This document shows positions 1 through 64,000 of a stretch of 64,000 nt of DNA, in pieces. Every line of letters starts with the position of its first letter. Within the stretch, counting starts at the first letter, position 1. The stretch is from Escherichia phage PP01: the sequence record NC_054930.1. One strand, 5' to 3'. Under the pieces are notes generated by a model. The model saw only the letters and a list, made by a program, of their open reading frames with translations. It made no database searches and was not told where the DNA came from. The position numbers and the translations under genes were made by a program.

Positions 1-939
1 GCCGAAGTTAAGAAACAAATGGAAGCTGGTGTACTGGTAGAAATCGCTGAAGGTATGGCTACTTCTATCGCTGAACTTCAGGAAGGTTTCAACGGTTCTA
101 CCGATAACCCATGGAATGAAATGGGCTTCCGTATCGATAAACAAGTTATCGAAGCTAAATCTCGTCAGCTGAAAGCTGCTTACTCTATCGAATTAGCACA
201 AGACCTCCGCGCTGTTCACGGTATGGATGCTGATGCTGAACTGTCTGGTATTCTGGCTACAGAAATTATGCTGGAAATTAACCGTGAAGTTGTTGATTGG
301 ATTAACTACTCAGCTCAGGTTGGTAAATCTGGTATGACCCTGACTCCGGGTTCTAAAGCTGGTGTATTTGACTTCCAGGACCCAATCGATATTCGTGGTG
401 CTCGCTGGGCAGGTGAATCCTTTAAAGCTCTGTTGTTCCAGATTGACAAAGAAGCAGTTGAAATTGCTCGTCAGACTGGTCGCGGCGAAGGTAATTTCAT
501 TATCGCTTCCCGTAACGTAGTTAACGTTCTGGCTTCAGTTGATACTGGCATTTCTTATGCTGCACAGGGTCTGGCTACCGGCTTCAACACTGATACTACC
601 AAGTCAGTATTTGCTGGTGTTCTGGGTGGTAAATACCGCGTATATATCGACCAATATGCTAAACAGGATTATTTCACTGTAGGTTATAAAGGTCCGAACG
701 AAATGGATGCTGGTATTTACTATGCTCCATATGTAGCTCTGACTCCACTGCGTGGTTCTGATCCGAAGAACTTCCAACCGGTAATGGGATTCAAAACTCG
801 TTACGGTATCGGTATCAACCCATTTGCAGAATCCGCTGCTCAGGCTCCGGCTTCTCGCATCCAGAGCGGTATGCCTTCTATTCTGAATAGCCTTGGTAAA
901 AACGCTTACTTTAGACGTGTATATGTTAAAGGTATCTAA
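1..939 (+). CDS. 23: Major capsid protein gp23, C-terminal 312 codons (5' end lies outside window)
   Basis: Reading frame open from position 1; stop TAA at 937-939; position immediately upstream of gene 24; followed by terminator hairpin. Confidence 0.85.
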   Translation, partial: AEVKKQMEAGVLVEIAEGMATSIAELQEGFNGSTDNPWNEMGFRIDKQVIEAKSRQLKAAYSIELAQDLRAVHGMDADAELSGILATEIMLEINREVVDWINYSAQVGKSGMTLTPGSKAGVFDFQDPIDIRGARWAGESFKALLFQIDKEAVEIARQTGRGEGNFIIASRNVVNVLASVDTGISYAAQGLATGFNTDTTKSVFAGVLGGKYRVYIDQYAKQDYFTVGYKGPNEMDAGIYYAPYVALTPLRGSDPKNFQPVMGFKTRYGIGINPFAESAAQAPASRIQSGMPSILNSLGKNAYFRRVYVKGI

Positions 940-965
940 TCTCTAACGATAGAAACACAATTTTA

Positions 966-989
966 GGGAACCTTCGGGTTCCCTTTTTC
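966..989 (+). terminator. Intrinsic terminator after gene 23
   Basis: GGGAACC-TTCG-GGTTCCC hairpin followed by TTTTT. Confidence 0.6.
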
Positions 990-1689
990 TATTTTATACG
1001 ATAGCAATCAGGCATATCATCCGCATTTATCCAATTGCGAATAGTTTTAGGACTAACTTTAAAATGCTCCGCTGCGTAATCAGGATTATCAAATTTAACG
1101 CCCTTTATACATATTGGAATAAATTTTTTAATACCACCAAGTTTTTCAGAAATAGCTTTACGGTGTGAAATCGATATAGGTTTATTTTTTCGTGGATGAA
1201 CATGTGTTTTATAATATTCATTGCGCCCTTTAACTCGCTTCGCAATAGTTTCATCAGATTGCTTAACGCCTGTTTTTGCCTTTGATATTTTTCGTTTAGC
1301 TTCCACAGTCATTCCTTCTTTTGTTCGTATTGATAACATATTACGATATGAAGGATCTTGCAAATGAACTATAACTGGATTTCCTCTGCCACCAATAGCA
1401 GCATTATAGGTATCAGTTCTCATAACGAATTCCTCATTGACTAGTAAAGCTTCCATTTTATACATCTCCTCAGATGAGGAGAAAGAATAAAGAATTTCTT
1501 TTTAAAGTTATGAATACCATATTTTTTGATGGATTTTTTGATGTTTACGCCAGAACCCATATAACCATCGTTTTCGTCAAGAGTAGCATGAGCTCCGATG
1601 TAAATTTTTCCATTGATGATATTAGTAATTTGATATATTAAATATTTCATTTTAAACATCGCTCCGTTTGTATATGAATATAATATCAT
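989..1689 (-). pseudogene. GIY-YIG homing endonuclease (Seg family), split by a frameshift; N-terminal catalytic ORF 1441..1689, C-terminal DNA-binding ORF 989..1465
   Basis: N-terminal ORF carries [14 protein letters not shown]...DDGYMGSG...GIHNF (GIY-YIG); downstream ORF in another frame carries ...LVNEEF... and an I-TevI-like C-terminal HTH (AAEHFKVSPKTIRNWI); frames join by a -1 shift at T-AAA-AAG near 1498-1504. Confidence 0.6.
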
Positions 1690-1714
1690 ATTACTTTGGT
1701 CTTGTAAATAACTT

Positions 1715-1722
1715 TATAAATA
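1715..1722 (+). promoter_or_regulatory. T4-type late promoter (TATAAATA) for gene 24
   Basis: Exact TATAAATA 28 nt upstream of the gene 24 ATG. Confidence 0.6.
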
Positions 1723-1749
1723 GTATTATATTTCAACAAGGAAAATACA

Positions 1750-3033
1750 ATGGCTAAAATCAACGAACTTCTGCGCGAATCAACCACAACGAATAGCAAC
1801 TCAATCGGTCGCCCAAATCTCGTTGCTTTGACTCGCGCTACCACTAAATTAATATATTCTGACATTGTAGCAACGCAAAGAACTAATCAACCTGTTGCTG
1901 CTTTTTATGGTATCAAATACCTTAACCCAGACAACGAATTTACATTTAAAACTGGTGCTACTTACGCTGGCGAAGCCGGATATGTAGACCGAGAACAAAT
2001 CACAGAATTAACAGAAGAGTCTAAATTAACTCTCAATAAAGGCGATTTATTCAAATATAATAATATCGTTTATAAAGTATTAGAAGATACTCCATTTGCT
2101 GATATTGAAGAAAGCGACTTAGAGTTAGCTCTTCAGATTGCAATTGTTCTTTTAAAGGTTCGTCTATTTTCTGACGCAGCGTCAACAAGCAAATTTGAAA
2201 GCTCTGATAGTGAAATTGCGGATGCTAGATTCCAGATTAATAAATGGCAAACCGCGGTTAAATCTCGTAAACTTAAAACTGGCATCACAGTTGAATTAGC
2301 GCAAGATTTAGAAGCAAATGGATTCGATGCTCCTAATTTCTTGGAAGATTTGCTTGCAACTGAAATGGCAGATGAAATCAATAAAGATATTCTGCAGTCT
2401 TTGATTACAGTGTCAAAACGCTATAAAGTTACAGGAATTACTGATAGTGGATTCATCGATTTGAGTTATGCATCTGCACCTGAAGCGGGTCGTTCATTAT
2501 ATCGAATGGTATGTGAAATGGTTTCGCATATCCAAAAAGAATCAACTTATACAGCAACGTTCTGTGTTGCTTCAGCTCGTGCCGCTGCGATTCTTGCTGC
2601 ATCAGGTTGGTTAAAACATAAACCAGAAGATGATAAATATCTTTCACAAAATGCCTACGGGTTCTTAGCTAATGGTTTACCGCTTTATTGCGATACTAAC
2701 AGTCCATTAGATTATGTAATCGTTGGCGTAGTAGAAAATATCGGCGAAAAAGAAATTGTTGGATCAATTTTCTATGCTCCGTATACAGAAGGTCTCGACT
2801 TAGATGACCCTGAACATGTAGGTGCATTTAAAGTTGTTGTTGATCCAGAAAGCTTACAACCGTCTATCGGTTTATTAGTTAGATATGCTTTATCAGCAAA
2901 TCCTTATACCGTAGCAAAAGATGAAAAAGAAGCAAGAATAATTGATGGTGGAGACATGGATAAAATGGCGGGTCGTTCAGATTTGTCTGTTTTATTAGGT
3001 GTTAAATTACCAAAAATTATTATTGATGAATAA
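1750..3033 (+). CDS. 24: Capsid vertex protein gp24
   Basis: 427 aa as in T4 gp24; synteny after gene 23; late promoter upstream. Confidence 0.9.
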   Translation: MAKINELLRESTTTNSNSIGRPNLVALTRATTKLIYSDIVATQRTNQPVAAFYGIKYLNPDNEFTFKTGATYAGEAGYVDREQITELTEESKLTLNKGDLFKYNNIVYKVLEDTPFADIEESDLELALQIAIVLLKVRLFSDAASTSKFESSDSEIADARFQINKWQTAVKSRKLKTGITVELAQDLEANGFDAPNFLEDLLATEMADEINKDILQSLITVSKRYKVTGITDSGFIDLSYASAPEAGRSLYRMVCEMVSHIQKESTYTATFCVASARAAAILAASGWLKHKPEDDKYLSQNAYGFLANGLPLYCDTNSPLDYVIVGVVENIGEKEIVGSIFYAPYTEGLDLDDPEHVGAFKVVVDPESLQPSIGLLVRYALSANPYTVAKDEKEARIIDGGDMDKMAGRSDLSVLLGVKLPKIIIDE

Positions 3034-6757: not shown

Positions 6758-6770
6758 AATATTTCCTCAG

Positions 6771-6778
6771 TATAAATA
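6771..6778 (+). promoter_or_regulatory. Late promoter (TATAAATA) for uvsW
   Basis: Exact TATAAATA about 30 nt upstream of the uvsW ATG. Confidence 0.6.
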
Positions 6779-6807
6779 TAGATATATTTATTACATGGTA
6801 TTTAGAC

Positions 6808-8319
6808 ATGACTGACATTAAAGTACATTTTTACGATTTTAGTCACGTGAGAATTGATTGTGAAGAAAGTACATTTCATGAACTCCGTGATTTCTTTAGC
6901 TTTGAAGCTGATGGGTATCGTTTTAATCCGAAATACAAATATGGTCACTGGGATGGACGAATCCGTCTTTTAGATTATAATCGCCTTCTTCCATTCGGTT
7001 TAGTTGGGCAAATTAAAAAGTTCTGTGATAACTTTGGCTATAAAGCCTGGATTGACCCGCAAATTAATGAAAAAGAAGAATTATCAAGAAAAGATTTTGA
7101 TGAATGGATTTCTAAATTAGAAATCTATTCAGGAAATAAAAGAATTGAACCACACTGGTATCAAAAAGATGCAGTGTTCGAAGGATTAGTTAATCGTCGT
7201 AGAATTCTTAATCTTCCAACATCCGCAGGTAAATCTTTAATTCAAGCTTTGCTTGCACGTTATTATTTGGAAAATTATGAAGGTAAAATTCTTATCATTG
7301 TTCCAACAACTGCTTTAACAACTCAGATGGCTGATGACTTTGTTGACTATCGTTTATTCAGTCATGCAATGATAAAGAAAATCGGTGGTGGAGCATCAAA
7401 AGATGATAAATATAAAAATGATGCACCAGTCGTTGTGGGTACATGGCAAACTGTAGTAAAACAACCAAAAGAATGGTTTTCCCAATTTGGTATGATGATG
7501 AATGATGAATGCCATCTTGCTACAGGAAAAAGTATTTCATCTATCATATCGGGTTTAAATAACTGCATGTTCAAATTCGGTTTGTCTGGTTCATTACGTG
7601 ATGGAAAAGCCAATATCATGCAGTATGTTGGAATGTTTGGTGAAATATTTAAGCCAGTAACGACTTCTAAATTAATGGAAGATGGGCAAGTAACTGAGCT
7701 AAAAATTAATAGTATTTTTCTTCGCTATCCTGATGAGTTCACTACTAAATTAAAGGGAAAAACTTACCAAGAAGAAATAAAAATTATTACTGGACTCAGT
7801 AAAAGAAATAAATGGATTGCTAAATTAGCTATTAAACTTGCACAAAAAGATGAAAACGCTTTTGTCATGTTTAAGCATGTATCACATGGTAAAGCTATTT
7901 TCGATTTAATTAAAAATGAATACGATAAAGTTTATTACGTATCAGGGGAAGTTGATACCGAAACACGCAACGTAATGAAAACCTTAGCTGAAAACGGTAA
8001 AGGAATAATTATAGTAGCTAGTTATGGTGTATTTTCTACTGGTATTTCAGTTAAAAATCTGCATCACGTTATTTTAGCGCACGGTGTTAAATCTAAAATT
8101 ATTGTATTGCAAACAATAGGTCGCGTATTACGTAAGCATGGTTCTAAAACAATCGCAACGGTCTGGGACCTCATAGATGATTGTGGTGTTAAGCCAAAAT
8201 CTGCTAATACGAAAAAGAAATATGTTCATTTGAACTATCTTTTAAAACACGGCATTGATCGTATTCAGCGCTACGCAGATGAAAAATTTAATTACGTAAT
8301 GAAAACAGTTAATTTATAA
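6808..8319 (+). CDS. uvsW: UvsW recombination/repair helicase (SF2)
   Basis: 503 aa; helicase motifs LNLPTSAGKS (Walker A) and DECH (Walker B). Confidence 0.9.
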   Translation: MTDIKVHFYDFSHVRIDCEESTFHELRDFFSFEADGYRFNPKYKYGHWDGRIRLLDYNRLLPFGLVGQIKKFCDNFGYKAWIDPQINEKEELSRKDFDEWISKLEIYSGNKRIEPHWYQKDAVFEGLVNRRRILNLPTSAGKSLIQALLARYYLENYEGKILIIVPTTALTTQMADDFVDYRLFSHAMIKKIGGGASKDDKYKNDAPVVVGTWQTVVKQPKEWFSQFGMMMNDECHLATGKSISSIISGLNNCMFKFGLSGSLRDGKANIMQYVGMFGEIFKPVTTSKLMEDGQVTELKINSIFLRYPDEFTTKLKGKTYQEEIKIITGLSKRNKWIAKLAIKLAQKDENAFVMFKHVSHGKAIFDLIKNEYDKVYYVSGEVDTETRNVMKTLAENGKGIIIVASYGVFSTGISVKNLHHVILAHGVKSKIIVLQTIGRVLRKHGSKTIATVWDLIDDCGVKPKSANTKKKYVHLNYLLKHGIDRIQRYADEKFNYVMKTVNL

Positions 8320-8344
8320 GGGCTTCGGCCCTTTGGAGAAAAAG

Positions 8345-34527: not shown

Positions 34528-35697
34528 TTAAAAATATTTTTTAAAACTCATCATAACTTTATCATCAACATCATTATCAATCTGTGCTACAAGGTAAGAT
34601 GACAGTTCTACTTCTTGCGGCGCGGATTGAACATTATCAGAATTAAGATATTCACGAATCCAAGGATATGGATGTTTAACCGGAGCATCGGTAATTGGGC
34701 ATGGAAGACCGCACTGTTTCATACGAGATACAGTTAAGTAATCAATAAAGCTCCACATGCTATTTGTATTTAATCCAGGAACATCACCATCTTTAAATAA
34801 ATGAACTGCCCAATCTTTTTCTTGACGGTTAACTTCCATGAAAATATCAACTGCTTCTTGTTCACACTCTTGAGCAATTTTAACCCATTCATCACCGTCA
34901 GTGCCAAGTTGAAGTTGACGAATAATATATTGAGTGCCTTTAAGATGAAGTTGCTCATCGCGCGCAATGAACTTCATAATCTTAGCATTACCTTCCATGA
35001 TTTCCATGTTCTTATGGAAGTTAAAGGTACATGCGAAAGATACATAAAAACGAATAGCTTCCAATGCATTGATTACATGAAGGCAAAGATAAAGAGATTT
35101 CATTAGTGCTCGTTTAGTACATTCAACAACTTTGCCTAACTCTTCTTTACGAAATCCTTCTGATAAAATTCCTTCATAATCTTCAACCGCATTCTGATAT
35201 TCACGAGTCTTAACTAGAACATCATCATAATAGCGACCAATGGACTCGGCACGTTTCATAATAGCTTTATCTAATACAATCTCATCAAATACCTTTGATG
35301 GATCAGTATAAAGATTTCGCATGATATGAGTATATGAACGGCTGTGAATAGTTTCACTAAAAGTCCATGTAGCAACCCATGTATCAAGACTTGGGTCTGA
35401 AATTAATGACATAAGTACAGCAGACGGTGCACGACCCTGAATGCTATCCAAAAGTGATTGATACTTCAGGTTATTAGTAAAAATATCTTGCTGATACTGA
35501 GGAAGCTTGTTAAATTGTGCAGCATCCATCATCAAGTTTACTTCTTCAGGACGCCAGAAAAATGACAACTGCTTTTCAGTTAAATCTTCAAAAACTTTAT
35601 GACGTTGAATATCATAACGCGCAATACCAAGACCTGAACCGAAGAACATAGGTTCTTTTAAAACATCAACTGGATTTGTATTAAAAACTGTGCTCAT
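34528..35697 (-). CDS. nrdB: Ribonucleotide reductase beta subunit, uninterrupted (no intron)
   Basis: 389-aa continuous ORF. Confidence 0.85.
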   Translation of the reverse strand: MSTVFNTNPVDVLKEPMFFGSGLGIARYDIQRHKVFEDLTEKQLSFFWRPEEVNLMMDAAQFNKLPQYQQDIFTNNLKYQSLLDSIQGRAPSAVLMSLISDPSLDTWVATWTFSETIHSRSYTHIMRNLYTDPSKVFDEIVLDKAIMKRAESIGRYYDDVLVKTREYQNAVEDYEGILSEGFRKEELGKVVECTKRALMKSLYLCLHVINALEAIRFYVSFACTFNFHKNMEIMEGNAKIMKFIARDEQLHLKGTQYIIRQLQLGTDGDEWVKIAQECEQEAVDIFMEVNRQEKDWAVHLFKDGDVPGLNTNSMWSFIDYLTVSRMKQCGLPCPITDAPVKHPYPWIREYLNSDNVQSAPQEVELSSYLVAQIDNDVDDKVMMSFKKYF

Positions 35698-35748
35698 AAA
35701 TTTTCCGCTTAGTTAATAGATAGTGACTCGTCCGTGAGTCAAATTATA

Positions 35749-38013
35749 TCATAATTTACAGGATGAACAATCTTCAGCTTTTGGAGTTTCTATTTCATAA
35801 TCATCAGTACCAGAACCATCACGGGTATTATGATAATAGAAATTTTTTCCGCCAAAATACCAAAAATACAAAAGGTCATCAATCATTACAGACATTGGAA
35901 CCTTTCCTTTTGGAAAAATCTGCGGGTCATAATATGTATTCGCTGAAGCTGATTGACATACCCATTTCAGCATAATAGCTACCTGCGTAAGATAAGGTTT
36001 ATTACCTTTCTTAGCTAATTTCCATGTATAATCATAGAGGTCTATGTTATGTTCAATATTGGGCACGACTTGATTAAAGGAACCCTCTTTTGATTCTTTA
36101 ACCGAGACTGGTCCACGTGGAGGCTCGATACCATTTGTACTGTTAGAAACTTGGGAAGATGACTCACATGGCATAAGTGCTGATAATGTGCTATTACGGA
36201 TGCCAAAGAGCTTAAGGTCTTCCCGCAGCGCCGACCAGTCACAAACGTATTTTGGAGCTGCGATTTGATCAATCTTTTTATTGTACCAGTCGATAGGTAA
36301 TTCGTCTCGAGACCAACGAGTGTCTGAATAATATTCGCAAGGTCCTTTTTCTTTGGCGAGCTTAATGGATGCTTTAATGAGTCCATACTGTAGTCTCTCA
36401 AATAGTTCATGTGTTAAATCGTTAGCATCTTCATAAGAAGCAAAGTTACTTGCCAGCCAAGCTGCATAGTTAGTAACACCTACACCAAGATTTCGACGCT
36501 TTTTAGCTTTTTCTGCTTCAGGAACTGGATATCCTTGGTAATCCAAAAGATTATCAAGAGCACGAACTTGGACTTCTGCCAATTCATTAATTTTATCTTG
36601 GTCTTGCCAATCGAAGTTATCCAACACAAATGCAGATAACGTACACAATCCAATTTCAGCATCAGGACTATTCACATCATTTGTTGGAATAGCAATTTCA
36701 CAGCACAAGTTACTCTGACGAATAGGTGCCTTTTCACGAATAAACGGAGTATAGTTATTCGTATTATCAATGAACTGTACATAAATCCTTGCTGTTCCTG
36801 AGCGTTCAGTCATGAGCAATTCAAATAATTCACGAGCTTTAATACGCTTTTTACGAATATTAGGATCTTTTTCTGCTGCTTCGTATAATTCACGGAAACG
36901 GTCTTGGTCTTTAAAATAAGAATAATAAAGCTCGCCACCCATTTCATGCGGACTGAACAAAGTAATGTAGTCGTTCTTTCCAAACCGTTCCATCATCAAA
37001 TCATTCAGCTGGACGCCATAATCCATATGACGGATACGGTTTTCTTCTACACCTTTGTTATTTTTCAAAACGAGAAGATTTTCAACTTCCAAATGCCAAA
37101 TAGGATAATAAGCAGTAGCAGCGCCGCCACGAATTCCGCCCTGTGAACATGATTTAACAGCAGTCTGAAAATGTTTCCAAAAAGGAATAACCCCAGTATG
37201 ACGCACTTCACCTGTGCCAATCTTAGAACCTTCGGCACGAATCATACCAACGTTAATGCCGATTCCAGCTCGTTTAGAAATATACTCAACAATTGAAGCA
37301 GAAGCCTTATTGATAGACTTCAGCGAATCACCTGCCTCAATAACAACGCATGAACTAAATTGCCGAGTCGGAGTACGACATCCAGCCATAATAGGAGTTG
37401 GCAATGAAATCTGTCGAGTAGATACTGCTTCATAAAAACGGATAACGTGTTTTAATCTATCAACAGGTTCATCTTGATGCAATGCCATTCCAATAGTCAT
37501 AAATGCAAACTGTGGAGTTTCATAAATTTGACCAGTGGTTTTATCTTTAACGAGATATTTTTCTTTTAATTGCATCGCCCCGGAATAAGTAAATTCCATA
37601 TCCCGCTCATGCTTAATTTTTGATTCTAAAAATGTAATTTCTTCTGCTGAATATTTTGACAACAATTCAGGGTCATATTTACCTTCATTTACGCAGTAAG
37701 AAATATGGTCAATAAATGAACGTGGTTCATACTGCCCATAAACATGCTTACGAAGAGCGAACATTAAACAGCGCGCAGCTACGTATTGATAATCAGGCTC
37801 TTCAACTGAAATAGAATTCGCAGCAGCCTTAATGACAATAGTCTGAATGTCATCAGTTGTCATTCCATCACGGAGATATGATTTAATATTTTCATATAAT
37901 TCATAAGGATCTACAGATGTTCCTTCAGCTGCCCAAGATAAAACTTTAATAATTTTTTGCGGGTCAAAGCTTTGAGAAACACCACTACTTTTGATAACAT
38001 TAATTAATTGCAT
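35749..38013 (-). CDS. nrdA: Ribonucleotide reductase alpha subunit
   Basis: 754 aa as in T4 NrdA; ATP-cone N-terminus; synteny. Confidence 0.9.
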   Translation of the reverse strand: MQLINVIKSSGVSQSFDPQKIIKVLSWAAEGTSVDPYELYENIKSYLRDGMTTDDIQTIVIKAAANSISVEEPDYQYVAARCLMFALRKHVYGQYEPRSFIDHISYCVNEGKYDPELLSKYSAEEITFLESKIKHERDMEFTYSGAMQLKEKYLVKDKTTGQIYETPQFAFMTIGMALHQDEPVDRLKHVIRFYEAVSTRQISLPTPIMAGCRTPTRQFSSCVVIEAGDSLKSINKASASIVEYISKRAGIGINVGMIRAEGSKIGTGEVRHTGVIPFWKHFQTAVKSCSQGGIRGGAATAYYPIWHLEVENLLVLKNNKGVEENRIRHMDYGVQLNDLMMERFGKNDYITLFSPHEMGGELYYSYFKDQDRFRELYEAAEKDPNIRKKRIKARELFELLMTERSGTARIYVQFIDNTNNYTPFIREKAPIRQSNLCCEIAIPTNDVNSPDAEIGLCTLSAFVLDNFDWQDQDKINELAEVQVRALDNLLDYQGYPVPEAEKAKKRRNLGVGVTNYAAWLASNFASYEDANDLTHELFERLQYGLIKASIKLAKEKGPCEYYSDTRWSRDELPIDWYNKKIDQIAAPKYVCDWSALREDLKLFGIRNSTLSALMPCESSSQVSNSTNGIEPPRGPVSVKESKEGSFNQVVPNIEHNIDLYDYTWKLAKKGNKPYLTQVAIMLKWVCQSASANTYYDPQIFPKGKVPMSVMIDDLLYFWYFGGKNFYYHNTRDGSGTDDYEIETPKAEDCSSCKL

Positions 38014-38570: not shown

Positions 38571-39431
38571 TTATACCGCCATCTTTCCTTTAATTGGCGG
38601 GTGAGATACATAGTTGTTAAGAACGAAATCTTTAGGTCTAAGTTTAAGAACATATTTTAATTGTTCTTTAGTAGAAAGATATCGGAATTTATAAGGTAGA
38701 CCACTTATTACCAGCTCACAAAGCTCTTTAGGTTCACGCCTCAAAATTTCTTTACACTGTTCTACGTGATTCATATAGATATGAGTATTACCACCAGAAA
38801 ATATCAAATCTCCTGGAATAAGATTACACATCTTAGCTACAATATGAACTAACGTAGCATATGATGCAATATTAAATGGAAGACCGAGAAAAACATCTAC
38901 CGAACGTTGATACCACTGCAAATCCAAATAGCCATTACGCACATTAAACTGATAGAACATATGACAAGGCGGTAATGCCATATATTTAAGTTCAGCTGGA
39001 TTCCATGCTGAAACAATTTGACGCCTATCATTTGGCAGTTTTTTAATACGATCAACAACTTCTATAATTTGGTCTACACCACCAAAATCACGCCACTGTT
39101 TTCCATAAATTGGACCAAGTTCACCGCTATGATACCCTAAATCTTTTGCCTGATTTTCGTAATTTTCATCCCAAACTGTTTTGCCTTGAATTAATGAATC
39201 GTGCTGAATTAATCGTAAATCATTGACATTTGTGCTTCCTGATAAAAACCAAAGCAGCTCAGCAATGCAAGCTTTCCAGGCGAGCTTCTTAGTTGTTACC
39301 GCAGGAAAACCTTTAGTTAAATCCCAGCGTAATTTAGTACCAAACAAAGCAATTGTTCCTGTGCCTGTTCGGTCATCGGTTTCATAGCCATTTTCAAAAA
39401 TGTCTTTAATTAAATCTTGGTATTGTTTCAT
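38571..39431 (-). CDS. td: Thymidylate synthase, uninterrupted (no intron)
   Basis: 286-aa continuous ORF; T4 td is intron-interrupted. Confidence 0.9.
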   Translation of the reverse strand: MKQYQDLIKDIFENGYETDDRTGTGTIALFGTKLRWDLTKGFPAVTTKKLAWKACIAELLWFLSGSTNVNDLRLIQHDSLIQGKTVWDENYENQAKDLGYHSGELGPIYGKQWRDFGGVDQIIEVVDRIKKLPNDRRQIVSAWNPAELKYMALPPCHMFYQFNVRNGYLDLQWYQRSVDVFLGLPFNIASYATLVHIVAKMCNLIPGDLIFSGGNTHIYMNHVEQCKEILRREPKELCELVISGLPYKFRYLSTKEQLKYVLKLRPKDFVLNNYVSHPPIKGKMAV

Positions 39432-39476
39432 TTAGTACCTTATATAAATTATAATACATTTTATGAAGCTAAATAA

Positions 39477-39824
39477 TCAATACGGTTTAGCATCAAATTT
39501 TCTCTCAATTTCAGGCGTGAAGTATAATTCTTTGCCACGTTTGGAAAAGCGACCAATAATATGATAATTATTCTCATCAAACGTAATATTGCCAATATCC
39601 ATGGCTTTCAACCAAATATCGATATTTCTATCCAGTTTTATATCAAAATTCCAATACGGAGAACTATTACCGAAAATACTGCAAGCGGATTCAGTGAAAC
39701 AACTACTATAAATCTTGTCTTTAGGAACTACTAATTGATAGACGCCTTTAATAAACTGAGGACCCTGCCATTTAGGTTGTTTCGCGTCTTTTTCTAATAG
39801 AATAGGGTAATAATTAAAATTCAT
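39477..39824 (-). CDS. Hypothetical protein between frd and td
   Basis: 115 aa from ATG 39824; the track start at 39836 is a GTG; no recognisable motif. Confidence 0.5.
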   Translation of the reverse strand: MNFNYYPILLEKDAKQPKWQGPQFIKGVYQLVVPKDKIYSSCFTESACSIFGNSSPYWNFDIKLDRNIDIWLKAMDIGNITFDENNYHIIGRFSKRGKELYFTPEIERKFDAKPY

Positions 39825-39844
39825 ATTTTCCGCCACGCATTATT

Positions 39845-43447: not shown

Positions 43448-43771
43448 CTAATGTATTAGTTTTTCACAACGAACAACAGAAGGACGTAAAAGATTTTCGT
43501 CAATGGCTTCTGACTGAATTTTTTCAATTATACCCGAAGGAATAAATTTAGCAAATTGAGTTTCAGGAATAGAATTTTCTTCTAAGAATGCTGTTGTAGC
43601 TTCAAGATAACTCATTCCAAACTCTTCTACCATTTTTTCAATAATAAATCCATTTTCTTGGCGGTCAAGAAGCTTTGCTATTTCATCCTTTTCTTTCTTA
43701 ATTGAAAGTTCTTTTTCTGAAAGACCGGTCTCATCGACCGGACGAATATCATTTAGAGAAAACTGTGTCAT
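43448..43771 (-). CDS. 33: Late transcription co-activator gp33
   Basis: About 107 aa from ATG 43771 (the track start at 43780 is a TTG); synteny 59-33-dsbA. Confidence 0.7.
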   Translation of the reverse strand: MTQFSLNDIRPVDETGLSEKELSIKKEKDEIAKLLDRQENGFIIEKMVEEFGMSYLEATTAFLEENSIPETQFAKFIPSGIIEKIQSEAIDENLLRPSVVRCEKLIH

Positions 43772-63061: not shown

Positions 63062-64000
63062 TTATTTAAATTGTTCAGTAACGTCTTCAACTACTTCGTA
63101 TTGGCAGGTACGCATTTTAGCATCGTTATAATCAATCGGAATTGATACCACATCGCGAGGATGCACTTTAACTTTTACGACTCGGCTGGTTGAACTGCCA
63201 AAGTGACGAATATAAGATTTAGAACACACATGCAGACCACGTGAACAAGTTTGTGTATCATCGTCATTCACACGAGTACGTGGCATTTTAACTACTTTAC
63301 CCGGACTGTTATCAAAGGTGTTTGAGTGACAGTCAAAGTAATTGCTGCGAACTACTTTCCAAGCATAGAAGTAACCATCTTCTGTAATTTCAATATCGTT
63401 TGCTACCAAGAAATCAAAGAGTCGAGATACCGCTTTTTGGCTTGGGTTTTCCAGTAGATTTTCCAAGAACGGAAAATAAAATTCAAAGTTTTCGCCTTTT
63501 TCCATCGAGTCAAGAATACGATCAACTAAACCGGACCGCAATTCGATATTTTGATAGAACAAGCTTCCACCTTCAATTCGAACATCACCGGAAATATATT
63601 TTTCAACAGCGCGACGAACATTAATTTTTTGTGCCGCTTCTTCCAACTTATCTGCTACGAGCAGATTAAGAATTTCCTGGAAGTTTGAATGAGTATTAGG
63701 AGTTGCATTATAAGTTACACCGTCAACAGTAATTGAAATGAATTTTTTAGATGCATTCCAAATAATGTCAGATTTAGCAACTGGAGCAATAACTGCATCG
63801 CTATTAACTTTAACTGTAATATCACCGCTAATAGTAACTTTAGGGCGTTTAGCTTCTTCAGCATTTTTCAAAACACGACGGATTGTGTCAACCGATACAC
63901 CTTGCCAATCAGCCAATTCCTGTTGGGTGTAATTACCGCTTGAATACAGTTTAACAATTTCAGCTTGTTCGTTTTTGGTCAGGCATTTAATATTGTACAT
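63062..64000 (-). CDS. rIIB: rIIB protein (start codon at window edge)
   Basis: 312 aa; N-terminus MYNIKCLTKNEQAEIVKLYSSGNYTQQELADW matches T4 rIIB as I recall it. Confidence 0.9.
   Translation of the reverse strand: MYNIKCLTKNEQAEIVKLYSSGNYTQQELADWQGVSVDTIRRVLKNAEEAKRPKVTISGDITVKVNSDAVIAPVAKSDIIWNASKKFISITVDGVTYNATPNTHSNFQEILNLLVADKLEEAAQKINVRRAVEKYISGDVRIEGGSLFYQNIELRSGLVDRILDSMEKGENFEFYFPFLENLLENPSQKAVSRLFDFLVANDIEITEDGYFYAWKVVRSNYFDCHSNTFDNSPGKVVKMPRTRVNDDDTQTCSRGLHVCSKSYIRHFGSSTSRVVKVKVHPRDVVSIPIDYNDAKMRTCQYEVVEDVTEQFK

Follow-up and report, generated by a model that had tools for sequence, protein, structure and literature searches.

A one-base homopolymer difference appears to underlie the split segD homing endonuclease gene in the deposited genome of Escherichia phage PP01

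The free-standing GIY-YIG homing endonuclease gene segD has been annotated between genes 23 and 24 of bacteriophage T4 (AF158101; protein AAD42657) and of phage RB18 (protein AXF42483), and is absent from phages RB14 and RB51. Sokolov and colleagues reportedly found, in 2018, a site-specific endonuclease activity for T4 SegD. The regulation of T4 homing endonucleases has been described in terms of promoters, hairpins that sequester the ribosome binding site, and autorepression, with segD having no promoter of its own and transcript levels that are probably vanishingly low (PMC2988022).

Several described systems show how a short A-run can move a reading frame. At the -1 frameshift sites of E. 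coli dnaX and of IS elements, the lysine codons AAA AAG lie in the zero frame within the heptamer A_AAA_AAG, the single E. coli tRNA-Lys slips back by one base into the downstream frame, and the site is accompanied by an upstream Shine-Dalgarno-like element and a downstream stem-loop; in dnaX, this shift truncates the protein. The shifty lysine codons of E. coli are well documented, and A_AAG suffices as a minimal site for -1 shifting by its single tRNA-Lys (PMC5009743). In the over-expression vector pDEST17, the non-canonical sequence C_AAA_AAA gave 25-60% -1 frameshifting and restored active enzyme from clones carrying a 1-nt deletion (Belfield et al. 2007, PMC1851650; for the class, Atkins et al. 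2016, PMC5009743). At the DNA level, +/-1 slippage in runs of six or more bases of phages T2, T4 and T6 is reported to exceed the basal mutation rate by far, and such homopolymers have been described as contingency loci of T-even phages (Gomez, Barrick & Waters 2025, bioRxiv 10.1101/2025.10.21.683753). Run lengths may also be wrong in a single record, as is the case in the T4 reference AF158101, where runs are miscalled in the gene 23/segD terminator and in uvsW/uvsW.1.

In this study, we describe the segD locus of Escherichia phage PP01 (NC_054930.1), where the gene is recorded in two overlapping frames joined at an A-run. The window, meaning the whole stretch of 64,000 nucleotides that was analysed, is a Tequatrovirus (T4-like) segment that makes up the final 64 kb when the genome is ordered as in the T4 map; it begins within the 3' portion of gene 23 and extends as far as the rIIB start codon, which falls exactly at base 64000. 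Within the phage collection, no record was closer to the window than about 97% over 25 kb. The features discussed here are listed in Table 1.

The PP01 gene is the same free-standing GIY-YIG gene as that of T4 and RB18, with the same place, orientation and domain matches. Its DNA identity to T4 and RB18 ranged from 99.3 to 99.8% over 901 bases, the highest value being that to RB18, and within the coding sequence it differs from RB18 segD by a 1-nt gap and one synonymous base only. When the missing A is restored, the amino-acid sequence is that of T4 and RB18 SegD. It is unlike both genes in lacking one A at nt 157-162, which breaks the 223-codon frame after K54. The intergenic hairpin found in the terminator scan is terminator-like on the + strand and has A/T runs on either side.

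Table 1. Positions of the features discussed, numbered from the first base of the window
Feature	Position	Strand	Description	Basis
Gene 23	19..939		3' part	
G+C-rich hairpin AGGGAACC-TTCG-GGTTCCCT	965..984		Between gene 23 and segD 3' ends	Terminator scan
segD	989..1659	-	Between genes 23 and 24, antisense to both	
-1 frame	989..1501	-	Native SegD residues 55-223	tblastn, query residues 54-223 matching 1501..992, 100% identity
Out-of-frame tail	1441..1497	-	18 residues and TAG (1443..1441), read if the ribosome keeps frame	
Hairpin UCUCCUC-AUCU-GAGGAGA	1465..1482	-	Starts 15 nt 3' of the heptamer	RNA fold
Junction T AAA AAG	1498..1504	-	A5 run at 1503..1499 (T5 on + strand, 1499..1503)	
segD codons 1-54	1498..1659	-	Native N-terminal part with GIY and YIG motifs, to K54	tblastn, translation, alignment
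Gene 24	1750..3033			
Gene 33 run	43460..43464	-	T5 (A5 on coding strand) where relatives have six, gene 33 nt 308-313	

Reading of both frames confirmed that the split is present in the deposited sequence. The ATG at 1659 (MFKM...), annotated as the start in RB18 and T4, was taken as the start of segD. From there the zero frame, to which tblastn aligned residues 1-57 of T4 SegD (1659..1489), proceeds to N51 F52 K53 K54 and then through the out-of-frame tail, giving a product of 72 aa, of which 54 residues are native and 18 are out of frame. Immediately behind a TAA (1504..1502) the -1 frame becomes open; its first ATG is at 1465, and it ends at the normal segD stop (991..989). Across the junction, the window reads TTT AAA AAG AAA TTC, and the alignment shows TTT AAA AAA GAA ATT in RB18, T4 and FL33. 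An earlier note on this DNA, made from the letters and their open reading frames, had placed a Seg-like gene in two frames with an A-run junction between genes 23 and 24, and both the sequence and the tblastn matches bear this out. It had further given the truncated product as 82 aa; an ORF of that length does begin at an upstream ATG (1689), but the annotated start gives the 72-aa product.

The same note had divided the gene into a nuclease ORF and a DNA-binding ORF, and this division does not agree with the domain structure. In intact SegD, the GIY-YIG family PF01541 covers residues 5-76, and PF19835, matched at 27.8 bits against a cut-off of 25, reaches residue 84. The N-terminal ORF of the window matches only positions 1-51 of the 78 positions of the Pfam GIY-YIG profile, and E77 and N86, which are invariant in an alignment of SegD with I-TevI, SegE and SegG, are both encoded downstream of the break. 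As recorded, no single polypeptide from segD contains the whole GIY-YIG catalytic domain; the break lies inside that domain and not between the nuclease and DNA-binding domains. According to Pfam matches, the -1 frame encodes the remainder of the GIY-YIG domain together with a NUMOD3-like motif and, at the C-terminus, a helix-turn-helix; it also matched, weakly, 1I3J, the DNA-binding domain of I-TevI.

The site was then compared with other segD genes. A 65-base query across it matched 66 bases at 98.5% identity, equivalent to one gap, in 51 of 51 segD-bearing phage records, all of which carry A6 at segD nt 157-162 and a single continuous frame. A search of JGI metagenomes with the pattern CATAACTTTAAAAA N{0,2} GAAATTCTTTATTC, which allows A5 to A7, added one contig, likewise with A6 and an unbroken frame, and the pattern had no match in IMG/VR or GTDB genomes. 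A protein-based locus search of viral contigs returned no SegD relatives, no protein with the frameshift tail was present among the 5.8 billion clusters searched, and exact look-ups of the 82-, 72-, 69- and 158-aa segD products, of the truncated gp33 described below and of the gp37 encoded in the window found none on record. A homology search with the 72-aa product returned unrelated lesions only, namely a T4_7t1 fragment and a Logan contig. The laboratory T4 clones T4_7t1 and T4_583L share a 2-bp frameshift deletion at segD nt 288-289, and the Logan contig has a different local scramble in segD, some 15 nt downstream of the junction seen here. In the PYPS2T group, segD has lost 12 bp in frame between two copies of the repeat ATCAAAAAAT.

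None of the 51 natural or laboratory records showed a changed length at any of the A6 tracts of segD, and tract-length alleles of segD are therefore rare at the consensus level. From the comparison with relatives it follows that the two-frame layout is a derived state confined to one sequence, in a gene that is undamaged elsewhere. The layout is not an architecture that relatives conserve, nor is it a pseudogene in long-standing decay, and the split itself is best described as a one-base difference in homopolymer length (A5 against A6) and not as a recoding signal. The term decaying pseudogene, which had been one of three readings offered earlier, is apt only weakly: the frame is indeed broken, but the gene has no other lesion and a single synonymous change.

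The remainder of the window was surveyed for differences of the same type. Homopolymer runs of three or more bases were compared with those of T4, RB18, FL33, OES_C-2 and VEc74, and 2905 of 3824 runs were comparable, of which seven differed from every matched panel genome. When counted against three relatives, singleton runs numbered one in T4, none in RB18, one in FL33 and four in the window. Four run-length sites that break no gene were tested (10655, 31489, 58564/58580 and 61699; three taken from the list of seven and one, at the end of gene pseT.1, from a blastn gap list), and since each is common to 8-36 other phages, these are natural polymorphisms. The two run differences that break a frame, in segD and in gene 33, are both A6-to-A5 changes in genes coded on the minus strand, and are shared with no genome. 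A frame check of the T4 genes in the region showed a change of frame in segD and uvsW only. The uvsW break was considered as a third lesion and rejected, as RB18, FL33 and OES_C-2 annotate uvsW and uvsW.1 separately; it reflects the old fused uvsW ORF of T4 AF158101, a record that itself flags sequence discrepancies in this section.

The short run in gene 33 was found in the base-level list of blastn gaps against T4. An exact match to a 71-base gene 33 query was found in 0 of 628 records, the best match being 98.6% identical with one gap. By translation, gp33 ends with ...CEKLIH (stop) in the window as against ...CEKTNTLDFLL (stop) in the relatives, so that the last eight residues (TNTLDFLL), which form the clamp-binding tail, are removed. 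Gene 33 is essential, and a viable phage should not carry a tail-truncating lesion; the in vitro biochemistry reviewed in PMC2988020 suggests that truncation of gp33 would be lethal.

These observations bear on the cause of the A5 run. Homopolymer miscalls in the record are, in our estimate, the most likely single cause of the segD split, with about an even chance of being the correct one. The deposited record may under-call two six-base A/T runs, one in segD and the other in gene 33, in which case PP01 would carry a normal intact segD of 223 codons. The segD run length differs from that of every related record while its flanks are identical, and the second unique run change falls in gene 33, where selection should forbid it. 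An artefact is favoured because the only run changes unique to the window are the two that destroy frames, a pattern that a technical under-call would produce, whereas selection would leave the opposite one. We infer an artefact in preference to a mutation from the expected lethality of the gene 33 lesion. A sequencing error in the A-run had been among the readings put forward earlier, and the unique loss in gene 33 lends it unexpected support.

Other observations speak against an artefact. The assembly is otherwise clean, with no other frame-broken gene among about 95 T4 homologues, and the implied error rate is only about 2 in 73 six-base runs. The segD gene is dispensable, the frameshifted laboratory T4 clones being an example.

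The miscalled T4 reference runs are likewise single-base discrepancies confined to one record. In the T-run that follows the segD stop (984..988), six T's are recorded in the T4 reference only, and each of the 1479 reads from a T4 stock has five (bioRxiv 10.1101/2025.10.21.683753). The T4 discrepancies are backed by independent resequencing, whereas those of the window are known only from the deposited sequence.

A strong competitor, to which we give a little under an even chance, is that the A5 run is real and arose by a recent polymerase slippage of the Streisinger type, with the loss of one A from a dispensable, selfish segD to give a null or leaky allele. In classical T4 genetics, Streisinger reportedly observed spontaneous frameshift hot spots at A6 runs. 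The A6 tract of the relatives is a mononucleotide repeat of at least six bases inside a gene, that is, the same kind of six-base tract with +/-1 slippage as in the T-even contingency loci. As T-even homopolymers of six bases or more are reported to be hypermutable, a real deletion in segD is quite plausible. The segD tract is itself listed in the T4 table of Gomez et al.; in two stocks, its variant reads numbered 1 of 1387 and 0 of 2195, and those of the gene 33 tract 0 of 1161 and 0 of 1809 (bioRxiv 10.1101/2025.10.21.683753). In these T4 stocks, however, the lone variant read at the segD tract fell in a different length class, whereas in the window the shorter length is the consensus.

A real deletion also agrees with the tolerance of segD for frameshifts, as seen in T4_7t1, T4_583L and the Logan contig, with the absence of broken genes from the rest of the assembly, and with the statement that frameshifted homing-endonuclease genes are typical in other phages (PMC10448857). 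Weighing against it are the constancy of the A6 tract in the 51 segD records and the co-occurring unique loss in essential gene 33, which points to a shared technical cause. If the A5 run is real, the allele would be fresh and reversible, and its zero frame would yield a 72-aa fragment without the catalytic Glu and Asn.

Such an allele might be leaky in the same manner as the pDEST17 deletion clones. With a real A5 run, a -1 slip of tRNA-Lys on A_AAG followed by reading of GAA could regenerate the exact wild-type SegD (...NFKK-EILY...), the product being exactly wild type because the slip and the deletion share one run. In this respect the locus resembles C_AAA_AAA of pDEST17, as both have an N_AAA_AAR sequence beside a 1-nt deletion and in both the slip gives the undeleted protein. 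The frameshifting in pDEST17 was, however, measured in a T7-driven over-expression vector, while segD is probably barely transcribed and its slippage is a prediction from sequence. Counted over open frames of 100 codons or more, the window contains 42 AAA-AAG pairs in frame, of which 28 follow a U, and 143 in-frame A_AAG tetramers. The occurrence of 28 in-frame U_AAA_AAG sites in ordinary open frames argues that the unstimulated rate of shifting is low. Any rescued SegD would be minute in amount, because the gene is reported to lack its own promoter and probably yields very little transcript (PMC2988022). Rescue of this kind would amount to adventitious compensation at a low level, and would be neither evolved nor programmed.

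An improbable extension of the deletion reading is that a real A5 allele and the A6 tract together form a reversible on/off switch, with trace SegD made by slippage in the off state. If this were true, a DNA-level contingency tract and translational leakiness would jointly keep a potentially harmful nuclease at a very low level.

Programmed -1 frameshifting of the dnaX/IS type, which would limit nuclease dose by making the 72-aa protein by default and full-length SegD as a minor product, is less probable still, and is not supported by the features of the locus. In its favour, the zero frame has AAA AAG at the junction, with the start of the open -1 frame just 5' of these codons and a hairpin of 7 bp downstream, and shifty lysine codons are well known in E. 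coli. The likeness to dnaX and IS sites thus extends to the lysine codons, to the single tRNA-Lys and to a -1 slip into the downstream frame. The first base of the heptamer is nevertheless a U, and U_AAA_AAG is not of the form X_XXY_YYZ; it is non-canonical because the P-site tRNA would have to re-pair with UAA after a -1 slip. The junction noted earlier as T-AAA-AAG was correctly read, but is not the canonical A_AAA_AAG, which has no in-frame occurrence in the window's open frames of 100 codons or more.

The surroundings of the heptamer also differ from those of the known sites. The usual spacing of a stimulator from the slippery site is 5-9 nt, and the dnaX stem-loop lies at about 6 nt. The sole stable hairpin at segD is 15 nt away and is identical in the intact alleles of RB18, T4 and FL33; it is not allele-specific, and its 3' arm is a Shine-Dalgarno-like GAGGAG that abuts an internal ATG. 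The fold of the region was no better than that of shuffled sequences (z = -1.67). No Shine-Dalgarno-like stimulator or GGAGG-like string was found in the 30 nt upstream of the heptamer, whereas dnaX/IS sites have such an element. A scan of positions 800..1900 against Rfam, with E up to 10, gave six weak matches at chance level, none of them a frameshift element, and the gathering score of no family was reached.

Comparison with relatives tells equally against a programmed site. All 52 other segD sequences are in a single frame, from which it follows that no lineage maintains a two-frame segD, and the arrangement is found in no orthologue, again unlike dnaX/IS sites. Translation in the zero frame would give half of a catalytic domain, which has no plausible role. 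The direction of the effect is the opposite of that in dnaX, where the shift truncates the protein, whereas at segD it would restore it. The review of T4 homing-endonuclease regulation never uses the word frameshift (PMC2988022). The earlier reading as a programmed low-level frameshift is thus not supported, given the A6 tract of the 51 records and the contig, the non-canonical heptamer and the distance of the hairpin, and the comparison of orthologs, which had been suggested as a check, placed segD of related phages in one frame with the two-frame layout in none.

The appearance of a slippery site has a simple explanation in phase. In the open frames of the window, 11 of 11 A6G strings lie in the phase AAA AAA G, and any loss of one A from them yields N AAA AAG and leaves the native frame in the -1 position. 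The slippery site at segD is consequently a result of where the base is missing, and does not constitute independent evidence. The motif is common; the exceptional part is the missing base alone, which is unique among the relatives examined.

Transcriptional slippage was also considered and was rejected, the A5 and A6 runs being shorter than the length needed. Slippage by E. coli RNA polymerase needs runs of about 8-9 bases or more.

Least credible of all is a functional split, in which the C-terminal DNA-binding part would be made from an internal ATG (1465 or 1456) as a site-specific binder or repressor free of nuclease activity: the Shine-Dalgarno-like GAGGAG does precede the internal ATGs, and both the NUMOD3-like and the helix-turn-helix match are retained in the ORF of 158 aa, but GAGGAG is sequestered in the predicted hairpin, the split arrangement is found in no relative, and the internal start sequence is not a feature of the split because it is present in every intact allele.

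On any reading of appreciable probability the locus is ordinary: the gene is known, the type of lesion (homopolymer +/-1) is known, and the heptamer arises by construction. It does provide a caution, in that the loss of one base from AAA AAA G mimics a dnaX-type heptamer complete with the right downstream frame, and slippery look-alikes of this sort need an orthologue check before recoding is proposed. Under the favoured reading of a miscalled run, segD and gene 33 of the PP01 record probably need to be corrected or re-checked, as annotators would otherwise call segD a pseudogene and gp33 truncated. If instead the deletion is true, PP01 would represent one more case in which a dispensable T-even homing-endonuclease gene has been inactivated by homopolymer slippage, and its allele would lend itself, as a naturally occurring substrate, to measuring how often U_AAA_AAG slips by -1 when unstimulated.

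Lesions in segD other than the split in the phage PP01 copy were found in several related records. Two records of mutant T4 clones, OL964745 (T4_7t1) and MZ375356 (T4_583L), carry the same 2-bp deletion (TA, segD nt 288-289), and this common frameshift shows that segD is dispensable in laboratory lineages. In the Yersinia phage PYPS2T group (n = 4 records), segD has lost 12 bp in frame (nt 117-128) between two direct repeats of ATCAAAAAAT, and the SegD protein lacks four residues (SIKK). Additionally, the segD of a 1022-nt Logan contig, SRR25448477, is that of phage RB18 apart from a local scramble, TATTCTTTCTCC to TATAC-ATCTCC, which lies some 15 nt 3' of the A-run and shifts the frame into the same wrong frame as that of the segD in the window; the scramble may have arisen by engineering, as an escape mutation or through faulty assembly.

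Positions of the features in and around segD and elsewhere in the window
Feature	Position	Strand	Remark
T-run	984-988		just 3' of the segD stop; adjoins the gene 23 terminator hairpin (965-984)
Hairpin and start look-alike inside segD	1456-1482	minus	
Sigma-70-like promoter match	1680-1708	minus	just upstream of segD
Stretches listed for differences from T4 in homing endonucleases and gene content	6760-6815, 35030-35750, 38880-39840, 42690-42790		
Gene 33	about 43448-43771	minus	
Gene 33 A-run, one base lost	43460-43464	minus	A6 run is gene 33 nt 308-313
rIIB end of window	63065-64000		last base of the window on the rIIB start codon

The perfect 7-bp hairpin inside segD has GAGGAG as its 3' arm, followed directly by ATG-TAT-AAA-ATG, and both GAGGAG hairpin and ATGs are kept in all aligned segD alleles. 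This Shine-Dalgarno-plus-start look-alike could give rise to a putative, N-terminally truncated DNA-binding fragment of SegD. Whereas the literature reports that no segD-specific promoter was found (PMC2988022), the window carries a sigma-70-like match just upstream of the gene (TTTACA, 17 nt, TATTAT; score 10/12), with TG preceding the -10 element. Promoter-like matches in the region did not exceed those in shuffled sequence (6 versus 4.4 +/- 2.1).

Heptamers were counted over the whole window in open frames 100 codons long or longer. Each of the 11 A6G strings in these frames was in the phase AAA AAA G, and the canonical dnaX-type A_AAA_AAG did not occur in frame, none of the 42 AAA-AAG pairs being preceded by an A. 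From these raw counts, its absence suggests that the heptamer most prone to shifting may be avoided.

At two sites the T4 reference (AF158101) is itself in doubt. The T-run beyond the segD stop is T5 in the window, RB18 and FL33 and T6 in the T4 reference, and the latter is likely an old error, since not one of the 1479 reads of a T4 stock has the reference's length there (Gomez et al. 2025 supplement, bioRxiv 10.1101/2025.10.21.683753). Relative to AF158101, which is annotated with a fused UvsW of 587 aa, the window also has a frame change at 8316-8324, the uvsW/uvsW.1 junction. Because uvsW and uvsW.1 are separate ORFs in the annotations of RB18, FL33 and OES_C-2, and the T4 record carries its own warning of sequence discrepancies in the uvsW section, it appears that the window is normal here and that the T4 reference is the one that deviates.

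With T4 I-TevI, I-TevIII, mobE, segG and nrdB.1 finding no match in the window, and the segE query matching segD alone, none of the homing-endonuclease genes that T4 has in this region is, judged by sequence matches, represented there except segD. The phage has a second alt-like gene. T4 gp38 had no match in the window, a 263-aa ORF occupying its position, and gp37 is only about 35% identical to that of T4. Since the rIIB start codon forms the exact end of the window, the window represents the terminal 64 kb of a linear record, in T4 map numbering.

The loss of one base from the A6 run of gene 33, which encodes an essential late-transcription co-activator, changes the C-terminus of gp33 from the usual ...CEKTNTLDFLL* to ...CEKLIH* and removes the tail that binds the gp45 clamp. 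This loss was present in none of 628 related records, and the deposited sequence is probably in error here; were the loss real, it would be of greater interest than the segD split.
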